Below are positions 8,900-52,503 of a DNA stretch of 64,000 nucleotides, piece by piece (the first letter of the stretch is position 1; every line of letters begins with the position of its first letter). A program made the translations under genes and the position numbers. The stretch comes from a virus. The DNA lies in the IMG/VR virus record IMGVR_UViG_3300036761_001135, positions 96,001 to 160,000 of that record. One strand, given 5' to 3'. The notes under the pieces are model-generated. The model saw nothing but the letters and a program-made list of their open reading frames with translations. It made no database searches and was not told the origin of the DNA.

Positions 8900-8900
8900 C

Positions 8901-9938
8901 ATGGCCGCACCGACAAGAACGAAAACGTGGGTGAAGCATTCGCATTACGTGGTAACGGCTGATGCTCCGACGCCACAGGCTGGGCAAACGGTAGACCGTA
9001 GCGCGGCACGGTACATCATGCACCTCATCAAGACGCAGTGGATCGCCATGGGGGGCACGGTGGCGCGCAGTTGCGGGTACTACGATGCCGGAGGTGGTGC
9101 GGCATGGCATTACGGGGCAGCGGACCATTGGCCAGATGCGGCATCGGTGCGGTGGAAAGAGGGCGACGGAAAGTTCGGTTGGGTCGTGTTGAAGAACACG
9201 AACATGCACAGCGGAGGTAACGGCTTCCAGGTACTTTTGGCTCTGACCAGAGATCGCACGCTTACATACTACATGACGATGGCGGTCTCGTTGGAGGCGG
9301 GCTTCACGGATGGGACCGAGACGACGCGCCCGACAGCGACGGATGAGGTGATCGTTTACAACGATGAGGCGTGGTATTCGACTGCCGGGGCGGGATACTC
9401 GCAGTGTCCGATGTCGCTGAATATCTGGTACGCTAACGATGGAACCAGTTTCCGTGTATTTGGTTGTGGAGTGGCGGCAGAAGAGACTTATAGAACTTTA
9501 AATCCGTGGATGTTCGAGAAGTTGGTAGACGCGCCGACCTGGCTAGATAAGCCGGTTGCTTTTGGGGCCATGTGGTGGCGGAGAACCAGCATGGTGGGTG
9601 ATCCGCCCGCATCATTTAGGCGCATGTTTTTCTGCTGCGACGACTTGGTAGCGATTCAGGCGATGATGTCTGTCGAGGGCATTTATGGCCTTGGACCGCT
9701 GACACAGCATGCAGCCTGTCAGGTATCTGACATGGGTGGATCGTGGCCGGTGTTTCCGGTGTCTGTGATAAGTATATATCCGTCTGTTCCCGGGTACATA
9801 GGGAAACTGGTTGACTTCTGGGCCGTACCGGATGCGTTGGCCAGCGGGGACTACATGCCAGGGGATGGGTCGATGGCGATGGCGGTGGTGCAGGACGTGT
9901 TGCAGGGAAATGACGGGACAGCCGTCATGATATCGTAG
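8901..9938 (+). CDS. Virion-associated protein (paralog of 9948-10928)
   Basis: Shares AGFTxG...RPTATDEV, WMF and GGxWPVF with the next gene; tight packing in the tail module. Confidence 0.55.
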   Translation: MAAPTRTKTWVKHSHYVVTADAPTPQAGQTVDRSAARYIMHLIKTQWIAMGGTVARSCGYYDAGGGAAWHYGAADHWPDAASVRWKEGDGKFGWVVLKNTNMHSGGNGFQVLLALTRDRTLTYYMTMAVSLEAGFTDGTETTRPTATDEVIVYNDEAWYSTAGAGYSQCPMSLNIWYANDGTSFRVFGCGVAAEETYRTLNPWMFEKLVDAPTWLDKPVAFGAMWWRRTSMVGDPPASFRRMFFCCDDLVAIQAMMSVEGIYGLGPLTQHAACQVSDMGGSWPVFPVSVISIYPSVPGYIGKLVDFWAVPDALASGDYMPGDGSMAMAVVQDVLQGNDGTAVMIS

Positions 9939-36405: not shown

Positions 36406-37353
36406 ATGACCAGTTATGTGTTTTCCATTCACGACGATTTTCCGAACCACGCCTTAGCCTCCGACCGGCTCACCATCGAGATTGGGGAGAGCGCCATTGT
36501 CACCGCGCTGGACGGCATCAGCACGTCCGGGGACGTCTGCGACATCGTGTTCAAGGCGGCGCTCTCCGAGGGGGACGAGGCGCTGCTGGAGGGGCTGGTA
36601 GCCGCGCACAGCGGGTTGCCGCTGCCCCAAGTGACCGAGGTGCGCACGACGGACGGGAAGTTGTACGTGTCGCCCGACATGTGGCCGCTAGGGACGCTGA
36701 CCAACTTCACGGGAGCCGCCGACGATGTGACCAACGGCGTCGTGGGCACGGATCTGCTGGCGTTTTCCTCGACAGCCGTGGAGGACAACGTCAAGGCGTT
36801 TCAGTTCATCCTGCCCAGCTACCTGGCCGGGGGGCATCTCCAGTACCAGGGGGCGGTGTTTGGCGACTGGATCGACTTCACGAGCGTCGTACCAGCGACG
36901 GCAGGCGTGTCGAATCCGGGGGCAGGAAATTTCAATAAGGTGCAGGTGGGCGCAGGGGCAAACGTCTTTGTGCCTTCGGTGCCAGGGTCGGGAAATTGGG
37001 ATCTCGATCTTACCGCCAAGGAGAACGCCAACGTCACCTTTACCAAGGTCAGGCCGGTTCCCGCGCCCGGCATGAACGGATACTTCGACCACAGCATCGA
37101 GACTGGAGCGGTGGTTCTCAACGCGACTGGGCATGGAGGGTATCACCTGTGCGATTACGAGGTGACGCTGGCTCGGTTCATTACGCGGGTGTCGATCATG
37201 GGGAGCGACCACTTCCCGTTGACGGTGCCAGCGGTGCGCCCGATCCTGATCCTGCCGCACTGGTTGCACCGCGTGACCGTGCATAATTCGACGACCAAGA
37301 CGCTGCATCTGGTCGCCATGCTCTACCGAGGGTTGGTCAATCCGTTGAGGTGA
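36406..37353 (+). CDS. Hypothetical virion-module protein
   Basis: SD AGGAGGAG before ATG 36406. Confidence 0.6.
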   Translation: MTSYVFSIHDDFPNHALASDRLTIEIGESAIVTALDGISTSGDVCDIVFKAALSEGDEALLEGLVAAHSGLPLPQVTEVRTTDGKLYVSPDMWPLGTLTNFTGAADDVTNGVVGTDLLAFSSTAVEDNVKAFQFILPSYLAGGHLQYQGAVFGDWIDFTSVVPATAGVSNPGAGNFNKVQVGAGANVFVPSVPGSGNWDLDLTAKENANVTFTKVRPVPAPGMNGYFDHSIETGAVVLNATGHGGYHLCDYEVTLARFITRVSIMGSDHFPLTVPAVRPILILPHWLHRVTVHNSTTKTLHLVAMLYRGLVNPLR

Positions 37354-37886
37354 GCATGGACGACGTGCGCATCATTTTGTCGGCCTCCAGAACGCCTCTT
37401 GGATCATTGATCCGGTGGTGTACTAAGAGCCAGGTCTCGCACTGCATGGTGGAGTTCCCGGTCTGGGGACGGAGCATGGTAGCCGAGTCTCGGGTGGGTG
37501 GAGTGCGGATTGTGCCATCGACGAAAGCGCGGCATCATGTGGTGGTTGAATATCGCTGTTGCTTTCCCTCTCGTACCGGGCTGGCGGCGATCTCGGACGA
37601 GGCTGGGGAGAAGTACGACTACGGCGGGTTGTTCGTGATCGGTTGGGCGATCATTGCTGCGAAATGGCTGCGGATTTCTGTGAAGCGGTGGCGTTGGAAG
37701 TCGGAATCAATCAAGTGCTCGGAGCTGGTCGTGATCTTCTTGCGGGCGTCGGGTGTGAAAGGGGCGGAGTTGCTTCCCATGGAGCTGACGACCCCGGAGG
37801 ACATCCGTAGTTTTTGCCAAGAACAGAAGGCGTATTTCGAGGAGGTCATCAAGGGGAACGCTGCCAAATCCGGGCTCATACCCTGA
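37350..37886 (+). CDS. Permuted papain-like NlpC/P60 enzyme (YaeF/YiiX, peptidase C92-like)
   Basis: IRW.T.S..SH, YDY and CSELV, with His preceding Cys. Confidence 0.75.
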   Translation: MSMDDVRIILSASRTPLGSLIRWCTKSQVSHCMVEFPVWGRSMVAESRVGGVRIVPSTKARHHVVVEYRCCFPSRTGLAAISDEAGEKYDYGGLFVIGWAIIAAKWLRISVKRWRWKSESIKCSELVVIFLRASGVKGAELLPMELTTPEDIRSFCQEQKAYFEEVIKGNAAKSGLIP

Positions 37887-39601: not shown

Positions 39602-40078
39602 ATGATCCTGTTGCGTCCAGATCCGGTTGATGTTGCGCTCCAGATCCTTGCGACTGGCCTGGACGGTGCGCCCAAACTGGACGTGGTAAGTGGCACGGTG
39701 CGCGTGTATCGGGTGACGGGCGCGGGAGAGGTGGAGGTTTTCCCGGTAACGGCGTTGGCGAACGTGGCTGGCACGAGCACATGGAGATTGCTGTGGACAT
39801 CGGCCACGCTGGTAGTTGGGCAGTACGTCGCGGAGTATCGGTTGGTTGACCTCTACGGCCAGGAGTGCGTGGCTCAAGAGGACATTGTGGTGCATGATTT
39901 GGCGTTGCAGGCGGACCTTGCGTTGGTGCGGCAGGTGGAGACAGGGCGCTGGCGCATTGTAGCCAACCAGATGATTTTCTTTGGTGATGATGGAATTACG
40001 CCTATCCTGACGTTCAACTTGAAGAACGAGTCTGGTATTCCGGCGATGGACGAAGTGTTCGAGCGGGTGCCAGTATGA
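39602..40078 (+). CDS. Hypothetical virion-module protein
   Basis: ETGRWRI..NQMIFF.DDG.TP..TFNL C-terminus. Confidence 0.6.
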   Translation: MILLRPDPVDVALQILATGLDGAPKLDVVSGTVRVYRVTGAGEVEVFPVTALANVAGTSTWRLLWTSATLVVGQYVAEYRLVDLYGQECVAQEDIVVHDLALQADLALVRQVETGRWRIVANQMIFFGDDGITPILTFNLKNESGIPAMDEVFERVPV

Positions 40079-40239
40079 TTGGCCAGAGGATCATCACGCG
40101 TGGGATGGGGCGAGAGCAGCAGCTTCTTTGCACGCGTGGATATGGCAGGTTGCGGGCTCGTATTCGTGAGGTCATTCGGCTTTGTGGTTGTATAGCGCAG
40201 CAGATTTGGATTAGGTCGCCATGGAAGCCGACCGAATAG
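40075..40239 (+). CDS. Small basic hypothetical protein (54 aa)
   Basis: ATGA overlap; ITRGMG/CTRGYG repeat. Below the ORF-track size cutoff. Confidence 0.5.
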   Translation: MIGQRIITRGMGREQQLLCTRGYGRLRARIREVIRLCGCIAQQIWIRSPWKPTE

Positions 40240-40396
40240 CAGTTGTTTCACGGTTTTCTGGGTTTCGCATCGAACTCGTTTCGCGGCCTGGGCAGCGGAT
40301 CACGATGACTTCTCGTCCGACGAGACGATTGGATGTACAATCGCCGTTTGGGACTCAGATCCGCGTAGCGTCGGCCCTATCACTGGAGGAGCTTCG

Positions 40397-40708
40397 ATGA
40401 GCGTGTGTCAAACAGGGTGTGGAAGCAGCAAATACTATGTGGGAGACGTCGGAACCGAGTTGATTGTCGATGTGTGCGTGGACATCACGACGGCGGTGGC
40501 GTCAAAGCTGTACGTCATGAAGCCTGGGGCAACCTTGGCGGTGGAGTGGGCGGCGGGAGTGTATCAGACGCAGTACCTACGGTACGTGATCCAGGCAGGC
40601 GACTTGAGCGTGCCTGGGGAGTTCAAGGTGCAGGCGTGGGTGCAGCTCCCGAGCGGGTCGTGGCGCGGGGACGTGGGCACGTTTCGTGTGTATCCGCCTT
40701 TCGCCTAA
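40397..40708 (+). CDS. BppU N-terminal-like (Ig-like) virion protein
   Basis: GDVGT, KPG, LRY...GDL..PG....QAWV..P.G.W; SD GGAGG. Confidence 0.6.
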   Translation: MSVCQTGCGSSKYYVGDVGTELIVDVCVDITTAVASKLYVMKPGATLAVEWAAGVYQTQYLRYVIQAGDLSVPGEFKVQAWVQLPSGSWRGDVGTFRVYPPFA

Positions 40709-40784
40709 TTTATAGATGGCAGCCATCGGCGGTGCTACGCTGAAGGTTGCAGACGCAGAGAACAACACCAAACAGGAGGACACT

Positions 40785-41366
40785 ATGGGTTACGAGAAGC
40801 TGAGCCAGTCGGTGGTCACGGATCAGGAAGCGCAGTTTGCCGGGGACGTCGAGGCCACGTTCTTCGAGATGCCGTACCTGGCCGGGCTCCCTCCCGTTGC
40901 GCCGGACAAGAGCACGACACGCCTGTACACGGACACGGCCGGGCACACCAAGCTACGGGACGCGACTGGCAAGGTGCTGGACCTGACGGCTGGCGCGCTG
41001 GCAGGGTCGGACGCGCGGTCGCTGTCGGAGGTATCTTTGGCGGTTGCAGCCACGACGACCAAGCGGGTTTTCCGGGCGCTGACCGATGGTGCGATCCGTG
41101 AGGTGGCGGCAGAGATCGGGACCGTGGCGGCGGCGGCCGAGTCGCTCTCCATCGACATTCTCATCGCTGGCGTTTCCGCGTTGACCGCTCCCATCGTCAT
41201 TGACAGCACGGTGCTCATCAACACTCCGGTGGAGGGATTGATCGATGCGACATCCAACGAGTACGTCGTGGGCGATTTGATCACGGTGTCATTTGCCTAT
41301 ACGGCAGGCGGCGGACCAACTCCCATGGCAAACGCCATTGTTGGGATTGGCGTACAGAGCGCGTGA
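40785..41366 (+). CDS. Hypothetical virion protein
   Basis: SD AGGAGG; beta-sandwich-like C-terminus (GDLITV). Confidence 0.6.
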   Translation: MGYEKLSQSVVTDQEAQFAGDVEATFFEMPYLAGLPPVAPDKSTTRLYTDTAGHTKLRDATGKVLDLTAGALAGSDARSLSEVSLAVAATTTKRVFRALTDGAIREVAAEIGTVAAAAESLSIDILIAGVSALTAPIVIDSTVLINTPVEGLIDATSNEYVVGDLITVSFAYTAGGGPTPMANAIVGIGVQSA

Positions 41367-41375
41367 TTGTAGGCG

Positions 41376-41723
41376 ATGTTTGACTACCAGGCGCGTGTGG
41401 TGTCGGTCATCGACGAGTACACGGTGGAATTGGCGGTTGATCTTGGGCTAGGAGTCACGAAGATCGACCGTTTTTTCCTGTTTGGAGTCGATTTGTCTGT
41501 GAGTCACATGGCATATCCGCAACACAGGCAACGTGCCAGGACTCGATTGCGTGAGATCCTCAACCAGACCATAAACGGCAAGGTGTATGTCCTCACGGTG
41601 CGCAATCCACATGACCCATATGGAAGCTATCTAGCGCGCATTCTGGTGCCTACTCAGAGTGGCGTATGGGATGTAGGGGCCATGCTTGTTGACGAGTGCC
41701 TAGCGCGTCCTAGCGCGTCCTAA
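41376..41723 (+). CDS. Thermonuclease (SNase)-like protein with a degenerate active site
   Basis: YQARVVSVIDEYTV...VDLG, LFGVD and YGSYLA, compared with canonical VIDGDT, RL.GIDAPE and YGR.LA. Confidence 0.65.
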   Translation: MFDYQARVVSVIDEYTVELAVDLGLGVTKIDRFFLFGVDLSVSHMAYPQHRQRARTRLREILNQTINGKVYVLTVRNPHDPYGSYLARILVPTQSGVWDVGAMLVDECLARPSAS

Positions 41724-41786
41724 CGACGTGAAAAGATAGATCCGCCTTTCGTCATCGTGCTACAAAGTAAGAATTGGAGGTACGAC

Positions 41787-42533
41787 ATGCCAGGACGCGA
41801 CGTGAATCCACGATTTATGCAGCGGTGTGTGGCAGATGTGACGGCGACTGGCAAAGAGCTGGGGTCGGCCTTCGCAATCTGTACGGCGCAATCCCAGAAG
41901 TCTGGCTACACTAAGAAAGGCTCGTCCAAGATGACCGGCAAGGGTGCCGCGAGGGAACGGGCTTTCAAGAATGCGCCGGATATGGACCAGAAGAATGCAG
42001 ATTACGAGCGTGCGGTGCAGGCCGGGCGCCAGCAGGAGGAGATCAGCATGCGGAGCATTATTCGACAACTCGAAGAAGGGTCCAAAGACCGCCCGCGCCA
42101 TCGGGAGATCTTGTCCGAGATCAAGGCGATGGAGTTGGAAGTGCAACGCATGGCGGAGCGCATCTCGGAGGACGGCGACGAGAAGCTGGCCGGGTATGCC
42201 ATGGAGGCCGCTGGCATGCTGGGCAAGGCATGGGTGCGCATGGCCTTCTTCGTGAAGAGCGCCGCTGGAAAGACGATCCGATCCGAGGAGACGGATGCGG
42301 ACGATGGCGTGCTGGACGAGCGATTCGGTCGTCGTCAATCCTACAGTCGTGATCCCTACCTCACGAAGGCAAAGACGGCGGGAGTCGATGCCAAGGGCCT
42401 GGCCTACAAGAAGGGCGACGAGGTCATGATCTACAAGGACGGGGCAACATATGCCGGGGCCAACAAGGACCAGGCGTGGCGGGATTTCCAGGCGGCCAAG
42501 GATGATGAAGCATTCATGAGTGGCGGGTACTGA
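41787..42533 (+). CDS. Multi-module protein with an internal MRSIIRQLEE motif (42048)
   Basis: SD GGAGG at the start and a second SD AGGAGGAG before the in-frame ATG 42048. Confidence 0.7.
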   Translation: MPGRDVNPRFMQRCVADVTATGKELGSAFAICTAQSQKSGYTKKGSSKMTGKGAARERAFKNAPDMDQKNADYERAVQAGRQQEEISMRSIIRQLEEGSKDRPRHREILSEIKAMELEVQRMAERISEDGDEKLAGYAMEAAGMLGKAWVRMAFFVKSAAGKTIRSEETDADDGVLDERFGRRQSYSRDPYLTKAKTAGVDAKGLAYKKGDEVMIYKDGATYAGANKDQAWRDFQAAKDDEAFMSGGY

Positions 42534-42542
42534 TAGCCTGAC

Positions 42543-42558
42543 GCGAACCCAGGTTCGT
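42543..42558. repeat. 16-bp palindrome, copy 7 (GCGAACCCAGGTTCGT)
   Basis: Intergenic, just before an SD. Confidence 0.9.
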
Positions 42559-42572
42559 ATGGAGGACGGACG

Positions 42573-43337
42573 ATGCGTAGATTATTCGAGCGGTGTGAGA
42601 GGCGGATGAACGAGGAGTATGGCGGCAAGAAGACCGTTCGGGAGCCAGCGTCTCACACGGAGTATATCGAAAAGATTTTGCGGGGCATCGGCAAGAAATA
42701 TGCGACAAGTTACGCTTCGCGTACATCTGGTACCTATACGGACAATCCTCCTTACGACGCGCCAAGTACAAATATTGTGTGGAGTCTGCCAAATGGTTAC
42801 GTCAAGTTGTCGATTGAGTCAGATTTGACAGCAGGTGGAGCCCCTCTGAAGACGTTGCGGGCATTTATAGAGCCAGCTTACGCGAACCGACCGATGACGA
42901 AGGTGACAGAAATTGCCAAGGCGTTGAAGGGGGAGCTGGAGGCGGGGGATACAGACTCCAGTGCGGACGCTGAGGAACTCATAGCAACTGTGAAGAAGGC
43001 GTTTGCTGAATTCGAAAAAGAATACGCAAAACCACAGAAAGCACGCATGCCGACTCCAGTGCCTGTGTTGTCATTTAATACAGAGGAAGACATGCGATTT
43101 TGGAAGGCGGCGGTAGCCGTAGGGGGAACAGCCTCCAGTTCCAACGTGATTCTGAAGATTTCTGGTGCTGAGATTTCAATACACAATCAGGGTTACTACG
43201 GCGGATCGGTAAATATTTATACAAAAGACGAGATGCTGGACAACCATTTGGTGCGCTTGAACGTGGCAGAGCGAGCGTTCCTGCGAGTCATGCAGCAGCA
43301 TGGGTGGCTGAAATCTGGCTATGTGCGAGAGATGTGA
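42573..43337 (+). CDS. Hypothetical protein with a divergent leader (MRRLFERCERRMNEE)
   Basis: SD GGAGG. Confidence 0.7.
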   Translation: MRRLFERCERRMNEEYGGKKTVREPASHTEYIEKILRGIGKKYATSYASRTSGTYTDNPPYDAPSTNIVWSLPNGYVKLSIESDLTAGGAPLKTLRAFIEPAYANRPMTKVTEIAKALKGELEAGDTDSSADAEELIATVKKAFAEFEKEYAKPQKARMPTPVPVLSFNTEEDMRFWKAAVAVGGTASSSNVILKISGAEISIHNQGYYGGSVNIYTKDEMLDNHLVRLNVAERAFLRVMQQHGWLKSGYVREM

Positions 43338-43362
43338 CAGACGTAGTTGGTAGCGATCCGAC

Positions 43363-43378
43363 GCGAACCCAGGTTCGC
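43363..43378. repeat. 16-bp palindrome, copy 8 (GCGAACCCAGGTTCGC)
   Basis: Intergenic relative to ATG 43397. Confidence 0.9.
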
Positions 43379-43396
43379 ATATTGACGAGGCACACG

Positions 43397-44623
43397 ATGG
43401 CAGAAAAATTGGACCATGGCGTTGTCAACCTGCCGCTCGACAAGCGCGGGGGTGGGAGCCTGGACGCGCAGATCGACCGCTTCAAGGCGGGGCAGCAGCG
43501 AGATGCCAAGGCAGCGGCCAAGGACAAGCACGCGCGATCCGTGGAGGCCAAAGAGTTCGTGGACAACATGGACGACGCGCAGCTTCGGCGACTGGCGGAG
43601 AAGGCCGGGATGACGGTGGTGCAGGCGCGCAAGAAGCTGTTGAGCATGGCGCGTTTTGAACCGGACAAGGTGCTGCGGCTCAAGGCCGCGCAGCCCACGG
43701 AGGAGACGATGCGGAGCTTGATCCGGCAACTGGAAGAGGCGAAGAAAAGCAATCCGAAACATGCGCAGGATAATGAGAGTGAAAAACATCGAGAGATGGA
43801 TCCGAAGACGAAGGCGGCTTTTTCACGAGCATTTAGCGCTCTTGGAAGTAATAAGCAGCCTTCTGCTGGCGCATCGAGTGCGGATGATGACAGGAAAGCT
43901 CGCAAGGAATTGGCAGATGTGAGCGCGAAGCATCGAGAGCTAGGGGCGGGTGGTGGCCACGTCGGCACCAAGAAGATTTTCACGGGTAAAAAGTCAGCCA
44001 TGGACCAGCTCAAGGCCGGTGGTCCGGCGAGCAAGGGATCGGACGCGGGTGGCGAGGGGACGATGCCAGGGCCAGAGGGCGAGGTAGATGGCAAGTGGGT
44101 GACGGTGCGTGGAAAGCGAATGTTCTTCCCGAACGATCCCGGGGAGGGCGTGCCCGAGGGTCCGTGGGGTGGTGCGCCATGGCGTCCCGGCTGGACTGGC
44201 AAGGGTGGGGATTGGCGCAAGGGACGCGGTGTTCCTAAACAAAAGGGGCAGATGAGTCTCTTTGGCAAAAACGAGGACATGCAGTCGCTATTCCAACGCC
44301 TGGAAGAGGAAGCCGGTCGGTCTAAAGAGATCGCGGACGAGATTTTGCGGCAGTTGGGTGGGAGGCGCTTCCTGGTGATGACGGGCGCGAGGAACCTGCT
44401 GGCGTTTGACACGCTGGACGCGGAGCGGAAGTGGCCTGGCTTGCAGGTGCAGTTTCCACATGGGAACGCCAAGGTGATGCGGATCGCGTTGGCACCGGAC
44501 GACACCTATGTGATCCAGTTCATGACGCGGGCGGGGCGAATAACCAAGGAGATGGACGACATCTATTCGGAGGTGCTTCAGCGCGTGGTCTCGGACTACA
44601 CGGGCTTGGCGTTGAGCCTGTAA
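43397..44623 (+). CDS. Three-module protein with internal leaders at 43709 and 44279
   Basis: MRSLIRQLEE and MQSLFQRLEE are each preceded by an SD-like sequence. The C-terminal ILRQLGG..F..MTGA..DTY...F..TGL domain recurs in phage proteins of unknown function. Confidence 0.7.
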   Translation: MAEKLDHGVVNLPLDKRGGGSLDAQIDRFKAGQQRDAKAAAKDKHARSVEAKEFVDNMDDAQLRRLAEKAGMTVVQARKKLLSMARFEPDKVLRLKAAQPTEETMRSLIRQLEEAKKSNPKHAQDNESEKHREMDPKTKAAFSRAFSALGSNKQPSAGASSADDDRKARKELADVSAKHRELGAGGGHVGTKKIFTGKKSAMDQLKAGGPASKGSDAGGEGTMPGPEGEVDGKWVTVRGKRMFFPNDPGEGVPEGPWGGAPWRPGWTGKGGDWRKGRGVPKQKGQMSLFGKNEDMQSLFQRLEEEAGRSKEIADEILRQLGGRRFLVMTGARNLLAFDTLDAERKWPGLQVQFPHGNAKVMRIALAPDDTYVIQFMTRAGRITKEMDDIYSEVLQRVVSDYTGLALSL

Positions 44624-44632
44624 GGAGATCCC

Positions 44633-45280
44633 ATGGGACGATTGGCGATCCTATCCGAAGCGCTCATGCAGGTGGCGCGTCCGAAGACGCTTTCCGACGA
44701 AAAATCTTACAGGCAGGCATTGGCGTTATTGCGTGATGGCGTGATGCCGATGGGTGAGACTTGGGGAGACGGCCCGCCGCCGTTGTTCGTGCATCTTGGC
44801 GGTTCAGATTCCTGCGTAGTGATGCGCGAGCGTAGGGAGTCGGTGGACGATCCATTGCGGATGGGTCGTGGAACTCGATTTTGGGTACGGTTTTCTGTGA
44901 AGCCAGGGCGTAGTGGAGGTGCGGGGGTCAGCATCGATCCTGTCGCAACTGAGGCGTTCATGTCGCAAGCCATGGCGGCTCCTTGCGACGACCATCTGGC
45001 GTTAGAGCATTTGGCTGCGGCGATGCGGGTGGTGTCCGAGGAGCGCTTGGATAGCGTGCAGGGTGCCATTCGGAAGTTGTTTTGGGAGGACGGGATCTGG
45101 AGATTGGTTGGCTGGAGGAATGCGGATCAATGGGAGTTGGAGACGATTGAAGTGACTCGCGTGGATCTTGGCGAGGCGGTTGTTGGGGAAAACCGTGGAG
45201 AAGATTGGGTAGCCAAGCGGTGGGAGGCGTGGGTGCCGTTCACTTGCGATGTTGAGGCGACTCTTTGGAGGAAGAAATGA
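44633..45280 (+). CDS. Hypothetical protein
   Basis: SD AAGGAG. Confidence 0.6.
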   Translation: MGRLAILSEALMQVARPKTLSDEKSYRQALALLRDGVMPMGETWGDGPPPLFVHLGGSDSCVVMRERRESVDDPLRMGRGTRFWVRFSVKPGRSGGAGVSIDPVATEAFMSQAMAAPCDDHLALEHLAAAMRVVSEERLDSVQGAIRKLFWEDGIWRLVGWRNADQWELETIEVTRVDLGEAVVGENRGEDWVAKRWEAWVPFTCDVEATLWRKK

Positions 45281-45606
45281 AGACGATTGAACAGAAACCA
45301 AGCGGTTCAGAATACAAGTCGCGTAGTGGGTTGGACCGACTTCAGGATGGGATTGCAAAGTGGGTAGAGGGACATCCTGTTCATGTGGTGGTGAAGGCGA
45401 AAGGCATGGGAGAGGATGTCACGTTGGAGGACGATCTCTCGGCGGTAGCGGAGCAGATCGACAAGATTTTGCGTGAGAATCCCGACGCTAAGTTTTCGTT
45501 GGTTGGATTTGCAACGTATTCCACGGAGGAATCCGAGGAATCCGATGAGCAGGAAGAATCCGTCGAGCAGCCATCGATCTGGGCGGCGCGGGGCGCAGTG
45601 CAATAG
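45277..45606 (+). CDS. Hypothetical acidic protein
   Basis: SD GGAGG; ATGA overlap. Confidence 0.6.
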   Translation: MKTIEQKPSGSEYKSRSGLDRLQDGIAKWVEGHPVHVVVKAKGMGEDVTLEDDLSAVAEQIDKILRENPDAKFSLVGFATYSTEESEESDEQEESVEQPSIWAARGAVQ

Positions 45607-45640
45607 GCGAAGGATCAGGTCGCAAACCAAGGAGGCATAG

Positions 45641-46006
45641 ATGCCGCTATCCGTTTCAACGCAGGTCTCCCCGGTAGGGAGCAAACTGATCGCGCAGACA
45701 AGTGTGGGCGCGACACCGGACAACAACGTCACGGGCGCAGCGGGCACGCTGTACATGGTGGACGTGGACAACACGGCCAACACGGTGGACCCAGCGTACC
45801 TAAAGATCTACAGCGATGCGGCTCCGGTCGTGGGAACCACGCCCCCGGACCTCTTGTTTTTGGTGGGCGTGAACAAGCGGCGGACGTTCGTGGTGCCGGA
45901 GGGCTGGGCCTTCACGGCGCTGTCGTTCGCGTGCGTCACGGCGGGTGGCACAGCGGGCGTAACGGCTCCGACGAATCCTGTCGTGGTCAGGATGGTGGCG
46001 TCGTGA
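45641..46006 (+). CDS. Small beta-rich structural-type protein
   Basis: AYLKIY.....VVGTT.PD; SD AAGGAGG. Confidence 0.6.
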   Translation: MPLSVSTQVSPVGSKLIAQTSVGATPDNNVTGAAGTLYMVDVDNTANTVDPAYLKIYSDAAPVVGTTPPDLLFLVGVNKRRTFVVPEGWAFTALSFACVTAGGTAGVTAPTNPVVVRMVAS

Positions 46007-46596
46007 AGCGTTTCGACATGGATGTAGACACACATGAGGCGGTATGGACGTTGGGTGCGCGAGCAGCGCGAGAGGCGCGTGGGAAGCTCGATCTCGATGG
46101 AGCCTTCATCGCGGCGGTGCGTAAATACGGAACCAAAGTGTTCCCTGCGGCCAAGGGCCACGAGGATGACCCATGGTTCGAGGAATACTTCCAGGCGTTT
46201 CGTGATGGGGCCGAAGCGGCGGGCGTGAATGAGAGCACCATGGCGATGCGTGGTCTGATTCGTCGGTTGGAGGAATCGAGTGTAAAGGACTCCGGTTCCA
46301 GTGAGTGGGTGGCGCAGAATCTGGCGATGTTGGCAGCGAATTTCGCACAGCAGGCCACGGAGACCTATCGAGGGCGAGGGACGGCATATCCGCGTAAGTG
46401 GTATGGCAAGATGGAGAAGGTGCTAGCGGGAAATGGGTTCGGTCCGTTGAATGCCAAACAGTTGGCCCTGTTCTCTGAGGCATACGAGCGGTTCATGGCA
46501 GCGTATGGGTCAGAGGACGGGCAGGATCTCGATGCAATAGAGCGGATTACCAAGGACATCACAAATCGCGCGTTAGCGCTCGTGAGGGCATCATGA
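46003..46596 (+). CDS. Two-module protein with an internal MRGLIRRLEE motif (46246)
   Basis: GTGA overlap with the previous gene; start uncertain. Confidence 0.6.
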   Translation: MKRFDMDVDTHEAVWTLGARAAREARGKLDLDGAFIAAVRKYGTKVFPAAKGHEDDPWFEEYFQAFRDGAEAAGVNESTMAMRGLIRRLEESSVKDSGSSEWVAQNLAMLAANFAQQATETYRGRGTAYPRKWYGKMEKVLAGNGFGPLNAKQLALFSEAYERFMAAYGSEDGQDLDAIERITKDITNRALALVRAS

Positions 46597-47033
46597 CAAC
46601 AATGCGGATCTTGATCGAGCGGTTGGAGGAAGGCGCAAGCGCGTGGACGCCTGCCGAAGAGACGGCTTGCTTTAAGCTCGCCAAGCAGCAGATCGCCACG
46701 CACGGCTACCGCTGGAATCCGCGCGTAGATGTCAGCAGCAGTACCGTGGTGGTGGACGCGCTGGTGAAGGGGCTGTTCAACGGGCGCGAGGGCACGCTGG
46801 TGATCGAGGTATCGCGGGGACGCACGGGGGACGGATCGCAGATGGAGGCGGGGGCCTCGTTCCAGACGGGCAAGAAGTGGACGGTCGAGGTGGTGGCGTT
46901 CAAGCCGATCCCGCAGACGAAGGAGAAGAAATGGCCACCGGATGCCTTTGCCTTCGGGCTGGAGGCCGGGGACATGCTTGTGCAGATATACGAGATGGCA
47001 ATCCGCGAGGGGTTTTCCGAAGGGGCACCCTGA
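46593..47033 (+). CDS. Leader-bearing hypothetical protein (MRILIERLEE)
   Basis: Motif at 46602. Confidence 0.7.
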   Translation: MTTMRILIERLEEGASAWTPAEETACFKLAKQQIATHGYRWNPRVDVSSSTVVVDALVKGLFNGREGTLVIEVSRGRTGDGSQMEAGASFQTGKKWTVEVVAFKPIPQTKEKKWPPDAFAFGLEAGDMLVQIYEMAIREGFSEGAP

Positions 47034-47049
47034 TCGGTGGAGATGGGAT

Positions 47050-47065
47050 GCGAACCTGGGTTCGC
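47050..47065. repeat. 16-bp palindrome, copy 9 (GCGAACCTGGGTTCGC)
   Basis: Intergenic, abutting an SD AGGAGG. Confidence 0.9.
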
Positions 47066-47077
47066 TAGGAGGACAGG

Positions 47078-47602
47078 ATGACGAGGATGCGGTCATTGAT
47101 CGAGCGGTTGGAAGAGGCCAAGACGATGAAGGATCAGCCGGAGCCCTACAAGATTGGACAGCGGTTCCAGTTCAAGGTGGGGGACCGCGTGATCTGTAAT
47201 GGGTATCCCGGCGAAGTGGAGCGGGTTGTCAAGGAGCGTGGCAGCGTCGAGGTGCGTCTGGAGCGTGGGCATGTGGAAGTGCCAGCTTCCTATCCTGATT
47301 GCTACCCAGACAAGGATGGATCTGACCTGTCAAGGTCGGACGTGAAGAGCGTAGGGGAACCGAAGAAAGAGGACGAGCCTGCGCCGCGTGGGCGCAACCT
47401 GCCAGACTCATGGCGAATCACGCAGATGTTCCGTGTGGGCAAGGATCGTTATCAGGTGCGGACTTCCTGGAAGGGGATACCGTGGGACGAGCGTGAACAG
47501 GTAAATCTCGTGAATGACATGCGCGGCGAGCTGTGGCAGCAGCTACGCACGGGGCATTCGCGGTTGCAGTCGATGGGAGCCAACCTGTGGGTTCTGCCAT
47601 AG
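47078..47602 (+). CDS. Leader-bearing protein with an SH3/KOW-like segment
   Basis: MRSLIERLEE at 47087; FKVGDRV...G.V..V. Confidence 0.7.
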   Translation: MTRMRSLIERLEEAKTMKDQPEPYKIGQRFQFKVGDRVICNGYPGEVERVVKERGSVEVRLERGHVEVPASYPDCYPDKDGSDLSRSDVKSVGEPKKEDEPAPRGRNLPDSWRITQMFRVGKDRYQVRTSWKGIPWDEREQVNLVNDMRGELWQQLRTGHSRLQSMGANLWVLP

Positions 47603-47629
47603 CTCTCAACGCCTTGTAGGAGCATTGGG

Positions 47630-48226
47630 ATGAATGTATCGACCGACTTCGTGGGGCGACACCTGATCGTGGACGCCTCGACCTACAACCGGCGAAACCT
47701 GACGTCCACGGACACCATCTTCTCGCTGTTCGAGTCGTTGGCCCGCAACCTGGACATGACCCTGATCATCCCGCCCATCGTATGTCGGTATCCGTTTGCG
47801 AACAGCGAGCTTGAGAACTTCTGCCACAGCGTGGAGCGCGATCTTGAGAAGCAGGTGCCGCAGCCGGACCTGGCCTCTATCCGCACCATGCGGCAGTTTT
47901 TAGCGCGGCGGCAGGTGGAGGAGAGCGGTGTCACGGGAATCAGCGTTTGGGCGGAGTCGCATTGCGCGATCCATACCTGGGACGCGGACAACTATTTCGC
48001 GTTCGACGCCTTCTCGTGCAAGGACTACGCGCCCAAGGACGCCCTGCGGCTGCTGCTGAACCACTTCGACGTGGAGATGCTGAACTGCATCAACCTGATC
48101 CGGCACCAGCGGAGCGTGCCGACGCTGACGAACTTCCAGGTCAACACGAACTGGGACGTGCTGGTGGCGGGGGTCAAGATCGGTGAACTCGACACAGTGG
48201 ACTTTGACAGGATGGTGGCACAATGA
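47630..48226 (+). CDS. speD: S-adenosylmethionine decarboxylase proenzyme
   Basis: GRHLIVD, GVTG....AESH.AIHTW and FDAFSCK, including the ES pyruvoyl cleavage site. Confidence 0.88.
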   Translation: MNVSTDFVGRHLIVDASTYNRRNLTSTDTIFSLFESLARNLDMTLIIPPIVCRYPFANSELENFCHSVERDLEKQVPQPDLASIRTMRQFLARRQVEESGVTGISVWAESHCAIHTWDADNYFAFDAFSCKDYAPKDALRLLLNHFDVEMLNCINLIRHQRSVPTLTNFQVNTNWDVLVAGVKIGELDTVDFDRMVAQ

Positions 48227-48735
48227 AGACAATGAGATCGATTTTTGAGGCGGCAGAGACGAGCCAGGCAAGGCTGACGGACAAGTTGGTCGCGCAGTTC
48301 TGCGTGGGGACCAGCGGGGTTGCGGAGCGTATGGCCAGGACGGGGCAGCAGGTCGAGGGTAAGGAATTCGCGTTCCTCCAGAAGCAGAATGTTCGGAATG
48401 TATCGAAATACTGGACCGTGACCCGACTGCCAGACGGGATCGAAGTGTTGGCGAAAGGGATCGAGGTGTCGGAGAAACTGACGCGGGGGAGCGATTTGAA
48501 TCAGGGCTTACGCAACGATGACTACTGGACCGTGAAGGTGGTGTTGACCGCTGCGCGCAACGGGGTGGCGTTCAATGCGGAGTACGCAAGGGAAATGGAC
48601 GAGGGGGGGAAGAAGCATATCGAGACCCTTCCGTGGCGGAATGTGCTGAGCGCCGATTCGGGGGATCTCGCGTATTATGTCATCGACGCGATTGACTGGA
48701 TCTGGGACGAGATCCGCGACTACGTGAAGCCGTAG
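48223..48735 (+). CDS. Hypothetical protein with a shortened leader (MKTMRSIFE)
   Basis: ATGA overlap. Confidence 0.65.
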   Translation: MKTMRSIFEAAETSQARLTDKLVAQFCVGTSGVAERMARTGQQVEGKEFAFLQKQNVRNVSKYWTVTRLPDGIEVLAKGIEVSEKLTRGSDLNQGLRNDDYWTVKVVLTAARNGVAFNAEYAREMDEGGKKHIETLPWRNVLSADSGDLAYYVIDAIDWIWDEIRDYVKP

Positions 48736-48757
48736 GGTAATTTACCGTGAGGTGACC

Positions 48758-49612
48758 ATGCGATCTTTGATCCGACAGTTGGAAGAAGCGTCTGGGGCGC
48801 GCATCACAATCGACACTGGTCCATACGAGAAACAAATCCGAGAGAGATTGCAGGATCTGTTCGATTACGTCATGGACAAATACAATGACGAGCAGGCGGG
48901 GAGGCGGCAACCGCATCCTCGCATGGGTCCGACGGAGAAGCCAGACTGGGACGTTGACAAAGAGGTTGCGAGGATTATTGAGGAGTCCCGCAAGGAAATT
49001 CAGACGCTGGTGCGACAGGTGGAAGCGGCGCTCGGTCGGTTGGAGAGTTGGGACAGCGGGATGCCGATTGTGATCCGTCCGATGCCTGGCATGGACGAAG
49101 TGTTTCACGATCAGATCTCTATAGATCCAGCAAAGAACATCGCGGTGGAGATGGGGACGGGGAGGGACAAACCTGGGTTTACGTTGTTCTTCGATGGCAC
49201 CATTGACGACGTTCTGGACGCCGGAGACCGTGACTTTTTCCGCGATCCGGCGGTGGAGACGGACTACTTCAACATTGTAAGTGAAATCGAAAAGCCGGGC
49301 AGTACGAAGCGGGCTGCGGGTAAGGTTGTCACAGTTTACACGGCGCGGCCGATTCGGGACAGAGCACAATATGAGCGTGCGACGACGATTCCGCATGCGG
49401 TGTTCCTGACCAATGATCTCGATACGGCGGTAGGCTATGCGCATGACCTGAGTGGTAGTGGTGGTCGAGACATCTACCGCATTCGGATCGACGAGCGGCA
49501 TCTGCGGGTGACATTGCAGAGTGGGCGCGTTCGTGAGTACCAAGTGATTGGCACGACAGGGAAGGTGCCCGTGGTAGAGATCGAACTGGTTGATATGATT
49601 TCAGCTCGGTAA
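48758..49612 (+). CDS. Leader-bearing protein with a C-terminal ADP-ribosyltransferase-like domain
   Basis: MRSLIRQLEE; VTVYTARP..VFLT.DLDTA.GYA..IYRIRI..EY. Confidence 0.55.
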   Translation: MRSLIRQLEEASGARITIDTGPYEKQIRERLQDLFDYVMDKYNDEQAGRRQPHPRMGPTEKPDWDVDKEVARIIEESRKEIQTLVRQVEAALGRLESWDSGMPIVIRPMPGMDEVFHDQISIDPAKNIAVEMGTGRDKPGFTLFFDGTIDDVLDAGDRDFFRDPAVETDYFNIVSEIEKPGSTKRAAGKVVTVYTARPIRDRAQYERATTIPHAVFLTNDLDTAVGYAHDLSGSGGRDIYRIRIDERHLRVTLQSGRVREYQVIGTTGKVPVVEIELVDMISAR

Positions 49613-49648
49613 AATAGCGCGTACTGCTATCAAGGAGCTTTTGAACCA

Positions 49649-50020
49649 ATGAGACATCTTCTGCGACGGCTAGAAGAGGCCACGGACGCGCCTTTGGCGA
49701 CGATCACGGTGCGGGTGGTGGACGGCGCGCAGGCGCGGGCGCAGGACCAGTCGTTCGCGGTAGGCGGGCACCACGAGGTGTACCCGTGGATTCCACAGGA
49801 CGAGGTCTGGATCGAGCGTGGGTCGGATGGGCCGGACCGCACGGCGATCCTTGTCCACGAGCTGGTGGAGTGGGCGCTCATGCGGTGGGATGGGCTGGCC
49901 TACGACCGGGCGCACCAATTAGCCAACGCGGCGGAGGAGGCGGTGCGGTTGCGGGTCGGGGTGAAGGACGGGGAGACGCGATCTGCTCCGGCGGGCCTGC
50001 CGGTGGGAGAGGGCAAGTGA
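49649..50020 (+). CDS. Leader-bearing metal-binding (zincin-like) protein
   Basis: MRHLLRRLEE; EVWIE..ILVHELVE..Y..AH (HExxE variant). Confidence 0.6.
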   Translation: MRHLLRRLEEATDAPLATITVRVVDGAQARAQDQSFAVGGHHEVYPWIPQDEVWIERGSDGPDRTAILVHELVEWALMRWDGLAYDRAHQLANAAEEAVRLRVGVKDGETRSAPAGLPVGEGK

Positions 50021-51312
50021 TGCGACAGCTCATTCGACGCTTGGAAGAGGCGGCTCCGGCTCCTGGATCCAAGGAGTGGCTGGCAGGGGTCAAGAAGTGG
50101 TGGGGGCAGTGGGTTGAAGACGCTGATCGGATTTCAAAAATTCGAGATCAACAGGATCGTCGGCAGGTTCGGGCGTGGTTTGTCGATGGTGAGAAGCGTT
50201 TGAACATGCTTGTGGACGTTTTAGTACGTCGGGCGAATCTCGTAACAGCGCCAGCCCTGGCGAGTATTACGACGGGGGACGACAACCGAGAGTACAAAGA
50301 TGGAGTGGGGCGTTTGAAGGTGCCGCGCTCATATAGTGTGCTTGGATTCAAGGTTAAGCCTGAGCCAGGGGATTTAGTGCATTCGCACTTGCAGGCGGCT
50401 TTGGATTCATTGGGCAATGTGCAGGATCATGAGCAGGATCGCTGGGTAGACATGCAAAGACGCCCGGATGAGAGGGACTGGGGAACGACGGGCGATTTAG
50501 ACGAGTGGCAAGCTTACTTGGAGATTATGCCGCATAACATTTCTGGAGTTGATGCGGACGTGCAGGCGGCGATGCGTAAGTTTGCAATGCAAATGAAGTC
50601 GGAACCTAATCGGGAGAGCGTCATAAACGACGCAATTCCGTTGGATTATGATTTGGGTGGCATGAAAGTGCTTACCAACCCTGGGTCATTGAGTAGTCTG
50701 TATTCTGCTGTCACTGGGGATGAGCAGGACGATATGGAAAATGCGATGGTGGATGCTGCCACGTCGAAGGAGGTTCGTGCCGGGTTGATGCTGGCACAGA
50801 GAGCATTGGAACAGCGTGGTTTTGGTAAGGTTTGGCATGGAAAAATCTATGTGTTGCCACCTCGTCTGGCGGCTACTTTTACGAAAGCTAAGACCAGGCA
50901 GTCATTCTTGTCTGGCGGTCATTACGATCACAGCAAAGATATTGTTGTTATAAATCCAAGGCATAACTGGAAGGCAACGACCATCTCCGAGATCGTGGTA
51001 CACGAACTAGGGCATCGCTACTGGTACAGATTCATGAAGGCGGGCGCGCGGGCGCGATTTGCGGCATGGTTCGACCCACGCACCAAGGCGGAACAAGATC
51101 GAGCTGGAGCGAAGTCCGAGTATGTGCCAGCGCCGACGGCGTATGGATCAGAGAGTCCGGTCGAGGAGTTTGCAGAGACCTTCGCAGCCTACGTGCTGGG
51201 AAAATACGAGGGCATAACGCTGACGGGGCCACAGAAGGCACGGTTCGAGGCGTTGGCCCTTGGTAGGGCAGCACAGAGCGAAGACGTGGAAGAGGCGCTG
51301 GGCAAAGACTAG
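50020..51312 (+). CDS. Leader-bearing zinc metallopeptidase
   Basis: MRQLIRRLEE at ATG 50020; VHELGH and YG...P.EEFAETFA.Y. Confidence 0.75.
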   Translation: MRQLIRRLEEAAPAPGSKEWLAGVKKWWGQWVEDADRISKIRDQQDRRQVRAWFVDGEKRLNMLVDVLVRRANLVTAPALASITTGDDNREYKDGVGRLKVPRSYSVLGFKVKPEPGDLVHSHLQAALDSLGNVQDHEQDRWVDMQRRPDERDWGTTGDLDEWQAYLEIMPHNISGVDADVQAAMRKFAMQMKSEPNRESVINDAIPLDYDLGGMKVLTNPGSLSSLYSAVTGDEQDDMENAMVDAATSKEVRAGLMLAQRALEQRGFGKVWHGKIYVLPPRLAATFTKAKTRQSFLSGGHYDHSKDIVVINPRHNWKATTISEIVVHELGHRYWYRFMKAGARARFAAWFDPRTKAEQDRAGAKSEYVPAPTAYGSESPVEEFAETFAAYVLGKYEGITLTGPQKARFEALALGRAAQSEDVEEALGKD

Positions 51313-51394
51313 CCATGACGTCCTCGACGCGGCATACTGGCTGCCTGATGGTGTTGTCACCCCGCTGTGAGGCGGTCGAGCAAGGAGTATCCCC

Positions 51395-51775
51395 ATGACC
51401 GAGCAGTACAAGGCGTTGAACTATGCGGACGGCATGCGCGGGCTGCTGCGGTCCCTGGAGGAAGCCCTCACGGGGCGCTACACGTTCGTGTTCAAGCCGG
51501 TGAAGGAGCGCGTGGGGGCGACAGGCCCGGACAAGACGCTGATCGCGCACCCCACCAAGAAGGTGAGCGTAGAGATCTATTACTACGAGAAGCCGGATCG
51601 GTGGAGCGCGACGATCTTCGATGGGGATGCCGAGGAGGAGTTCACACCGGACTACATCGTGGGCGGCCAGGCGTTCGCCAAGGGGCTCACGCAGTCCGAG
51701 GCGGAAGAGGCGGCGATTGAGATCACGTTGAAGTACCTGGGGGACAAACGACGCAAGGGCTGGCGGGAGCCGTAG
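51395..51775 (+). CDS. Leader-bearing hypothetical protein (MRGLLRSLEE at 51434)
   Basis: SD AAGGAG. Confidence 0.7.
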   Translation: MTEQYKALNYADGMRGLLRSLEEALTGRYTFVFKPVKERVGATGPDKTLIAHPTKKVSVEIYYYEKPDRWSATIFDGDAEEEFTPDYIVGGQAFAKGLTQSEAEEAAIEITLKYLGDKRRKGWREP

Positions 51776-51803
51776 GGGCGGAGAGCGTTCGACGGCGATC
51801 CGA

Positions 51804-51959
51804 TCACAAGCGCAGGTGTCCCAGATTCCCCGTGAGCAGTAGGATGAGCAGGATGAGCATGATGATGCCCAGGGGGGACCAGCCGAGGGGATGGCCTTGT
51901 ATCCCGCCGAAGAGGGCCACGACGATCAGGACGATGACCAGGATGACCAGTATCGACAT
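51804..51959 (-). CDS. Small two-TM membrane protein (DUF3309-like)
   Basis: MSILVILVIVLIVVALFGGIQGHPLGWSPLGIIMLILLILLLTGNLGHLRL, with SD AAGGAG on the minus strand. Not in the ORF track. Confidence 0.75.
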   Translation of the reverse strand: MSILVILVIVLIVVALFGGIQGHPLGWSPLGIIMLILLILLLTGNLGHLRL

Positions 51960-51998
51960 GCCGTACTCCTTTCAGCTCGCCTGGTAACAGTGTAGCAC

Positions 51999-52014
51999 GC
52001 GAACCTGGGTTCGT
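51999..52014. repeat. 16-bp palindrome, copy 10 (GCGAACCTGGGTTCGT)
   Basis: Between divergent genes; extends to CAC..GTG. Confidence 0.9.
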
Positions 52015-52084
52015 GTGGTTCTCACCAATCGGCAGCGGTGGCATGTCCGGGGTGGCAAACGATATTTTGTGATAAACTTGGGGG

Positions 52085-52462
52085 ATGAAAACGTTGACCT
52101 TGAAGACGCGACCACCCAAGAGCCCACCGGAGAATTGCGGAAGCGGAAGCGGAGAGTGTACCGACTTCTTTCTACGCATTACTGAGACGATGGAGGCGAT
52201 CCGTGAGGAACAGCGGACTCTACGTCGAAGTGTACTGGCCATGGAGGGGAGGTTGGCGACCTTGGAGGTACAGGGCCAAAAGCTGGGACATCAAATCCGG
52301 CAGTCGGACATGGTCTCTCGCCAGTTGCCTGTGATGCAGGAACGTGCGGTAGAGAAGTTGCCCCAACGGTCGGGTGCGCCGTTCATCGGAATTGTGATAG
52401 GGGTTGCGATAGTGGTTGTTATCGTGCTTGCTGCTTGGATCGGGCTGTTCAATGGGTTCTAA
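52085..52462 (+). CDS. Coiled-coil protein with C-terminal TM
   Basis: Heptad region and hydrophobic tail. Confidence 0.55.
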   Translation: MKTLTLKTRPPKSPPENCGSGSGECTDFFLRITETMEAIREEQRTLRRSVLAMEGRLATLEVQGQKLGHQIRQSDMVSRQLPVMQERAVEKLPQRSGAPFIGIVIGVAIVVVIVLAAWIGLFNGF

Positions 52463-52474
52463 AAAACATGGAAG

Positions 52475-52503
52475 TTGACGAACCATTTGCTATCGGTTAG
52501 ATT
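52475..52503 (+). promoter_or_regulatory. sigma70-like promoter
   Basis: TTGACG-N17-TAGATT. Confidence 0.65.

Follow-up and report, generated by a model that had tools for sequence, protein, structure and literature searches.

Phages of the T4 type mark head cargo with a capsid-targeting sequence (CTS), carried by the internal proteins IPI-III and Alt and processed by the prohead protease gp21 (PMC3012670, PMC9026906, PMC12373910). Residues 8 and 10 of the CTS govern this processing, and gp21 cuts after L/I-X-E (PMC9026906). The tag underlies both the natural injection of anti-defence proteins and engineered protein delivery, and it is known as an N-terminal propeptide only, whereas in the viral DNA analysed here four leaders of the same format lie between protein modules and relatives carry C-terminal copies. 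This DNA, hereafter the window, comprises 64,000 nucleotides (positions 96,001 to 160,000 of IMG/VR record IMGVR_UViG_3300036761_001135), and three of its open reading frames (ORF1 to ORF3) are genuine in-frame fusions under purifying selection. We put at roughly 0.6 the probability that these ORFs encode capsid-loaded polyproteins cut after L-x-E, the tag also serving as an in-frame recombination joint, and we take their layout to be, most likely, a new arrangement within the known T4 system of CTS and internal proteins.

Several described systems bear on this layout. The internal-protein (IP) loci of T-even phages are hypervariable, according to a passage of PMC2839356 that cites Repoila 1994. 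Giant-phage proteases process their substrates at multiple sites, and the propeptides of giant phage SPN3US span 111-254 residues (PMC10052503); the DarB protein of phage P1 bears an N-terminal packaging signal (PMC9024508). Our literature search found no published description of in-frame tandem or internal copies of a CTS. Head-assembly genes nested in frame are known from lambda (C/Nu3), herpesviruses (UL26/UL26.5) and T4 itself (gp21 and gp21s, a short form starting at Met45), and modular shuffling at promoter early stem-loops (PeSL) in T4-type phages was reportedly described by Arbiol in 2010.

The likeness to T4 extends to a T4-type head module with an S77 protease, to a 10-residue leader that is common to unrelated proteins, with L or I as residue 8, Glu as residue 10 and then a small residue, and to the clustering of the tagged genes in variable arrays, as seen for the internal-protein genes of T4. 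The two differ in the number of leader sites, a handful in T4 and about 18 here, and sequence identity between the leader and the T4 CTS is negligible.

The phage and its leader peptide

The source is a single virus record of 168,688 bp (~168.7 kb; CheckV completeness ~91%; G+C ~59%), of which the window represents bases 96001-160000, with nearly all genes on the plus strand. The genome encodes a portal of the T4 family (E 6e-61), a gp23-type major capsid protein (E 1e-56; ~27% identical to gp23-type capsid proteins of cultured T4-like phages) and a gp21-type prohead protease (Peptidase_S77, PF03420; E 5.5e-10 and 1.3e-13), and hence a T4-type prohead with a gp21-family protease. T4-like baseplate wedge and tail-fibre genes are also present in the window, and megablast of window positions 40000-52000 against GenBank phages gave no match. 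This uncultured phage belongs to the T4 superfamily as a distant member.

A strict peptide pattern, M-[RQK]-x-hydrophobic-hydrophobic-x-x-[LIVMA]-E-[EDAT], identified 13 leader copies, all on the plus strand, and a position-specific scoring matrix (PSSM) built from these copies was used to scan the 168.7-kb genome with a cut-off of >=14 bits. The scan returned 18 sites, every one of them in a plus-strand coding frame and none in the other five frames. One array of sites lies at genome 80-85 kb, the other at window 42-51.5 kb. Their consensus reads M-R-S-L-I-R-Q-L-E-E with A, G or S next, or more loosely M-R-x-L-I-x-x-L-E-E before the same three residues; L-E-E and then A, G or S is found at 16 of the 18 sites. 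In format the leader is an amphipathic helix of 10 residues, L-x-E occupying positions 8-10, and a small residue stands at 11; its end fits L/I-x-E, which PMC9026906 defines as the motif cut by gp21. The leader is shared by otherwise unrelated proteins: some 14 ORFs begin with it, and the sequences downstream of the 18 PSSM sites are unrelated to one another. Four of the 18 copies are internal, within ORF1 (41787-42533), ORF2 (43397-44623) and ORF3 (46018-46596). Different codons are used in 281 of 519 same-residue codon pairs, and the leader is therefore conserved as peptide, not as DNA. Its DNA pattern was searched in IMG/VR, where one relative only was found, and in metagenomes, where 8 of 101 pattern-matching stretches had blastn homology to the genome (E <=1e-10); the other 93 had no such homology and were taken as chance matches.

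Three in-frame fusions and their relatives

The sequence-only reading that drew attention to this locus had placed four leaders inside longer frames, each with its own Met and with no stop codon before it. On re-reading, the four sites and their flanking nucleotides are exactly as it gave them, no stop separates the starts at 41787, 43397 and 46018 from their leaders, the N-modules upstream (41787-42047, 43397-43708 and 46018-46239) are coding in the leader frame, and the Met is kept at all four sites in the window. None of the three N-modules carries a leader of its own, and in these ORFs the leader is not an N-terminal propeptide, since 74-104 (or 294) in-frame residues precede it.

Codon log-likelihood of the N-modules favours the leader frame by 0.3-0.6 nat per codon, with log-likelihood ratios of 0.38-0.48 for ORF1, ~0.6 for ORF2 and 0.3-0.5 for ORF3 against values around zero or negative in two control frames, before 50020 and before 46602, that only chance keeps open. 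Module 1 of ORF2 shows 13-16 synonymous and 2-3.5 non-synonymous differences from its relatives, with a ratio of non-synonymous to synonymous change (pN/pS) of 0.05-0.08, and the corresponding ratio for module 1 of ORF1 is 0.12-0.56, mostly 0.12-0.2. From the codon statistics and pN/pS together, the latter being 0.05-0.15 in most pairs, it follows that translation runs through the N-modules in the leader frame. The IMG/VR relative (L003/L004) and metagenome contigs from other, independent assemblies (L089, L095 and L083) have these open frames too. A promoter and terminator scan of 40500-52500 gave results not above those of shuffled sequences, so that nothing points to separate transcription units within the ORFs.

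ORF1 (41787..42533, plus strand, 248 aa; AlphaFold2 (AF2) mean predicted local distance difference test score, pLDDT, 82.7) begins with module 1 (41787..42047), a helical module of 87 aa with the motif CVADV..AFAICTAQSQKxGY and a pLDDT of ~96. Its start at 41787 has the strongest Shine-Dalgarno (SD) sequence measured in the analysis, with an anti-SD pairing energy (dG) of -10.6 kcal/mol. The internal leader, MRSIIRQLEE+G (42048..42080; 33.9 bits), lies at a site that runs ..caggaggagatcagc-ATG and reads QQEEIS|MRSIIRQLEEG, with the SD-like sequence AGGAGGAG 6 nt upstream; cleavage is predicted after E97 (nt 42077). The middle part (42081..42320) consists of a variable helical segment and then a disordered stretch up to V-L-D-E, an L-x-E junction without a full leader, and it is followed by domain B (42321..42530), ~70 aa of beta structure plus a helix with a pLDDT of ~97. 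The fused form recurs in L003, L095 and L089, the middle segment being replaced in L089 and nearly gone in cluster representative P0004. Searches with ORF1 gave no tblastn match in GenBank phages (50,697 records), and its model had no Foldseek match in the PDB at E <=0.001.

ORF2 (43397..44623, plus strand, 408 aa) had been described in the sequence-only reading as three modules in tandem, and this is what we find. Module 1 (43397..43708, 104 aa) is helical (helices 22-97, pLDDT 66-84). Leader 1, MRSLIRQLEE+A (43709..43741; 36.7 bits), stands at acggaggagacg-ATG, reading TEET|MRSLIRQLEEA, with the SD-like GGAGGAG 3 nt upstream. Module 2 (43742..44278) is basic, Gly-rich, mostly of low confidence or disordered (pLDDT 33-55) and hypervariable among relatives. 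Leader 2, MQSLFQRLEE+E (44279..44311; 31.4 bits), follows at aacgaggac-ATG, reading NED|MQSLFQRLEEE without a usable SD. Module 3 (44312..44620) is an alpha/beta domain of ~100 aa (pLDDT 77-86) that belongs to phrog_9437 over its full length (E 3.9e-13, profile positions 3-98 of 98), and this family stands alone elsewhere: tblastn finds module 3 in genes of ~90 aa in 19 GenBank phage records, and it is a free-standing gene of that size in Ralstonia phage RSP15 and others. The tblastn match of ORF2 to GenBank phages runs through module 3 only, a search for longer partners of module 1 returned close relatives only, and ORF2 variants of 218, 480 and 484 aa occur in relatives. ORF3 (46018..46596, plus strand, 192 aa) joins an N-module of 74 aa to a C-module of 106 aa through a leader region at 46240-46278, M-A-M-R-G-L-I-R-R-L-E-E-S, the doubled start at 46240/46246 reading NEST-M-A-MRGLIRRLEES.

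Pfam and PHROGs gave nothing for ORF1, ORF3, modules 1 and 2 of ORF2 or ten large proteins with the module-1 domain of ORF1, the exceptions being phrog_9437 and two weak matches. A search with ORF1 among 1.84 billion cluster representatives found relatives in 185 of them, which show ORF1 to be made up of families that exist independently. Module 1 is found as a protein by itself (81-120 aa), as the N-terminal part of proteins with a variety of C-terminal ends, and within larger proteins of 400-900 aa; its family, in 185 representatives, has no Pfam or PHROG model and no tblastn match in the 50,697 GenBank phage records. The 14 closest complete representatives (33-79% identical, alignment A1) all consist of module 1, a leader-like helix (M-R-A-L-I-R-S-L-E-E-A, M-A-A-V-F-A-R-L-E-E-S or M-R-E-I-F-D-R-I-E-E-A, for example) and a different partner in each case, which argues that the fused state is old and maintained and not a recent accident. 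In P0018 and P0022 the partner of ORF1 module 1 is module 3 of ORF2. The module-1 domain occurs twice in some proteins of 750-916 aa (such as P0024, P0046 and P0120), with L-E-E-A-type motifs between the domains. Domain B likewise has independent homologues of 65-108 aa and is found C-terminal in larger proteins; several of the stand-alone proteins have their own leader ending in L/I-x-E right before the conserved R/W-x-G-R-R start of the domain, the equivalent of V-L-D-E|R in ORF1. Module 1 and domain B are probably two large unannotated families of head cargo.

Comparison with related phages finds the same modules both as separate genes and in different fusions. Homology to relatives breaks at 61 ends of high-scoring segment pairs (HSPs), corresponding to ~36 distinct positions, with one relative contig counted twice (L003 and L009), and 17 of these 61 ends, or 9-10 of the ~36 distinct positions, fall inside leaders, the expected share being 4% (binomial P = 2e-10, computed on the 61 ends). 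The breakpoints inside the 33-nt leaders lie at 42064 (in L089), 43739 (L003 and L095), 44306 (L095), 46274, 47116, 48231, 48786, 49664 and 50029-50032. In L089 the segment after the ORF1 leader is replaced. For module 2 of ORF2, L003 has a replacement of half its length, L089 an insert of 72 aa and L095 a segment of 60 aa in its place, and P0155 and P0157 have a deletion of it; the sole leader of P0155 is a hybrid of ORF2 leaders 1 and 2, M-R-S-L-I-R/R-L-E-E-E. The N-module of ORF3 has a different C-terminal partner in each of the window, L095 and L083, three in all, and the C-module of L083 is joined in L003 to a different N-module of 190 aa. A further fusion, of an N-module of ~95 aa, a leader and 140 aa, is found in L095 and L083. 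In L079 a single frame contains two tagged modules, and the body fused there is a separate gene in the present genome with its own stop-preceded leader.

Leaders in relatives are also found at the C-terminus or in reduced form. Before module 3, L095 has D-I-A-E-E|AGRS instead of a full leader, and on its reverse strand (8467-8979) it encodes a protein of ~166 aa that has no N-terminal tag and ends in ..M-T-M-R-T-L-F-E-R-L-E-E-S-K-stop. The next gene of L095 begins 12 nt after this C-terminally tagged one, in another frame and with its own leader. In L111, which is syntenic but more distantly related, five leaders are N-terminal, three internal and one C-terminal, the product of L111:10001-10924 ending in the leader-like ..G-M-R-S-L-L-R-Q-L-G-E-A-I-stop.

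Growth of cargo genes by accretion of cassettes, as the sequence-only reading had proposed, is borne out by the breakpoints inside leaders, by the one N-module with three C-modules and by the leader-to-leader deletion in one relative; it is the best-documented part of that reading, because of the breakpoints at leaders and the hybrid leader. The exchange of cargo genes at short conserved sequences resembles that of the hyperplastic IP loci of T-even phages and PeSL shuffling. There, whole genes are swapped, whereas here many joints lie inside the coding leader and make, alter or collapse in-frame fusions.

Proposed capsid loading and cleavage, and alternative readings

If the three ORFs do encode capsid-loaded polyproteins, the whole precursor would be translated from the upstream start, the internal leader, wherever it stands in the chain, would dock this precursor to the prohead core, and the S77 prohead protease would cut after L/I-x-E at each junction, so that one precursor would deliver two or three separate proteins into the head, untagged N-modules included. 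Because all cassettes share one 33-nt leader in frame, recombination between leaders would swap, add and delete modules with the frame intact. We infer docking, cleavage, packaging and injection by analogy with T4. The entry of an untagged N-module into the capsid by hitch-hiking on the tag, suggested in the sequence-only reading, is likewise inferred, and it gains strength from the leader-like helix that many diverged relatives have after the ORF1 N-module family. A terminal position is not required of the leader, as the prefixed leader of the gene at 51395 and the C-terminal copies in L095 and L111 illustrate. A wider version of this mechanism, in which the leader is a position-independent, two-sided loading tag that loads both neighbours, is cut by the protease, sets the ratio of long to short products through a nested start and acts as the in-frame recombination joint, is a reading that we judge somewhat unlikely; were it true, it would constitute a natural plug-and-play system for assembling and reshuffling polyproteins of injected effectors.

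Several observations weigh against loading and cleavage as outlined. The phage is uncultured, so that packaging and cleavage are read here from its genes; the leader arrays sit among tail and accessory genes, outside the head module; the L/I-x-E motif is short and arises by chance; and AF2 places the ORF1 leader not in an exposed linker but inside one continuous helix (residues 66-100) that extends from module 1. To our knowledge, the T4 CTS has been shown to work at the N-terminus only. Finally, all four internal leaders keep their Met and two have an SD of true-start strength, neither of which a pure cleavage-site model needs.

This last point leads to nested genes, in which the internal Met codons would be real starts yielding mainly separate, leader-first proteins, the long read-through product being minor or serving stoichiometry. 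Retention of the Met is accompanied by an M-x-x-M pattern, often present and typical of N-terminal copies, and the closest relatives of module 1 keep the Met (in one case Val) at the start of the helix, while distant stand-alone forms often do not. The sequence-only reading had described the internal leaders as usually preceded by an SD-like sequence. Measured as anti-SD pairing energy against 511 internal in-frame ATGs, this holds for 42048 (-10.3) and 43709 (-9.5), both in the top 1% of that background, and fails for 44279 (-1.8) and 46240/46246 (-3.3/-2.7), leaving two of the four internal leaders in the window without a usable SD. When relatives are counted with the window, a dG of <= -8.4 is reached by 7 of 12 distinct internal leaders (background 5th percentile -7.2), a count confounded by Glu/Gly codon content: the SD-like strings double as Glu/Gly codons and are perhaps kept for protein reasons. 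The GGAGGAG before 43709 is unchanged in four sequences that have three synonymous changes just upstream. An internal in-frame Met with an SD-like sequence in a longer ORF, and long and short forms that would share a C-terminus, recall the lambda C/Nu3 type of arrangement; here, however, the SD is present at part of the sites only, the shared element is a targeting tag and not a scaffold domain, and initiation is putative. The L/I-x-E junctions that lack a Met (V-L-D-E|R in ORF1 and D-I-A-E-E|A in L095) argue for cleavage over initiation, and the persistent absence of a stop after module 1 across wide divergence argues for a selected fusion. As the main route we judge nested starts unlikely, and they could also act alongside cleavage.

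The upstream modules might instead be long disposable propeptides or assembly chaperones, removed by the protease and degraded rather than retained as cargo. T4-like proteases of giant phages do take off long N-terminal propeptides by several cuts (PMC10052503), and the upstream modules, at 74-104 aa, each end at a protease-type motif; the predicted cutting after Glu at several sites of one precursor is a likeness to phiKZ and SPN3US. In those phages, however, the N-terminal parts are cleared propeptides, whereas the N-parts here are folded domains that are conserved and also exist independently, and a complete copy of the targeting leader forms each joint. ORF1 module 1 is well folded and strongly conserved and also exists alone and inside larger proteins, and the pN/pS of ~0.06 for ORF2 module 1 is unlike that of a spacer-like propeptide; the upstream parts thus do not have the dispensability and lack of independent existence of the giant-phage type, and we regard this explanation as distinctly improbable. 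Slightly less probable still is the view that the ORFs are ordinary multidomain cytoplasmic proteins whose shared peptide is a generic helical linker or oligomerisation motif with no capsid role. It would suit the AF2 helix and the absence of annotation for most modules, and the capsid link of the leader proteins is drawn from sequence; but a linker would not be expected to begin ~14 otherwise unrelated ORFs, nor to end in the T4-protease motif plus a small residue in a phage with a matching S77 protease. An assembly or sequencing artefact, with stop codons lost between genes that are really separate, comes to mind for a window taken from a single metagenome-derived record. It is exceedingly unlikely, given that the IMG/VR relative and several metagenome contigs have the same open frames at 93-99% identity with synonymous differences, and that fusions are also seen among numerous diverged cluster representatives. 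We rejected both artefact and chance open frames, the controls before 50020 and 46602 having shown what chance frames score.

Should the tag work internally, one precursor could load several proteins in fixed ratio, untagged ones included, and phages could build new injected effectors simply by tag-to-tag recombination. The recognition of cargo genes in metagenomic phages would change, since untagged N-modules would otherwise be missed, and the rules of capsid targeting would widen, suggesting multi-cargo designs for phage-based delivery.

Neighbouring genes and intergenic palindromes

Downstream of the fusions, six N-terminally tagged genes on the plus strand begin at 46593, 47078, 48223, 48752, 49649 and 50020 (span 46593..51312). 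The gene at 49649-50020 encodes 123 aa with a VHELVEW motif, and that at 50020-51312 encodes 430 aa with a HELGH zinc-peptidase motif and a weak Peptidase_Mx match (E 0.0035); L015 has the 430-aa HELGH gene twice, in tandem and diverged. In the middle of this array lies an AdoMet decarboxylase gene without a leader (47630-48226, plus strand; PF02675, E 1e-18). The gene at 51395..51775 (plus strand) is a fifth and minor instance of a leader that does not open its frame: a prefix of 13 residues, M-T-E-Q-Y-K-A-L-N-Y-A-D-G, precedes the leader (51434-51466), with an SD before 51395 and not before the leader Met at 51434, and this arrangement is kept in L039.

The palindrome GCGAACC-NN-GGTTCGC has 21 matches within 2 mismatches, where 0.07 would be expected by chance: copies at 42543-42558, 43363-43378 and 47050-47065 plus 18 further matches. 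The first two flank the gene at 42573-43337, which is missing in L003 and L089 with breakpoints at 42557 and 43355-43360, and the copy at 47050 is also a homology breakpoint. The palindrome seems to act as a recombination joint of a second type, lying between genes, and the bracketing of an indel cassette by the copies at 42543 and 43363 is a likeness to PeSL.

The prohead protease gene lies outside the window (L001:73-2865, genome 60337-63132) and encodes 931 aa. Its two S77 halves are split by an insert of ~400 aa, which from its sequence looks like an intein candidate; the insert has a Cys after ..ELDHP and ..TGN|S at its far end. A C-terminal extension forms a Glu/Ala-rich coiled-coil tail of ~380 aa that looks like a candidate fused scaffold. 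Just upstream of the leader array, at window 37350-37886, stands a gene resembling enoyl-CoA hydratase/carnitine racemase (phrog_1128, E 5e-16).

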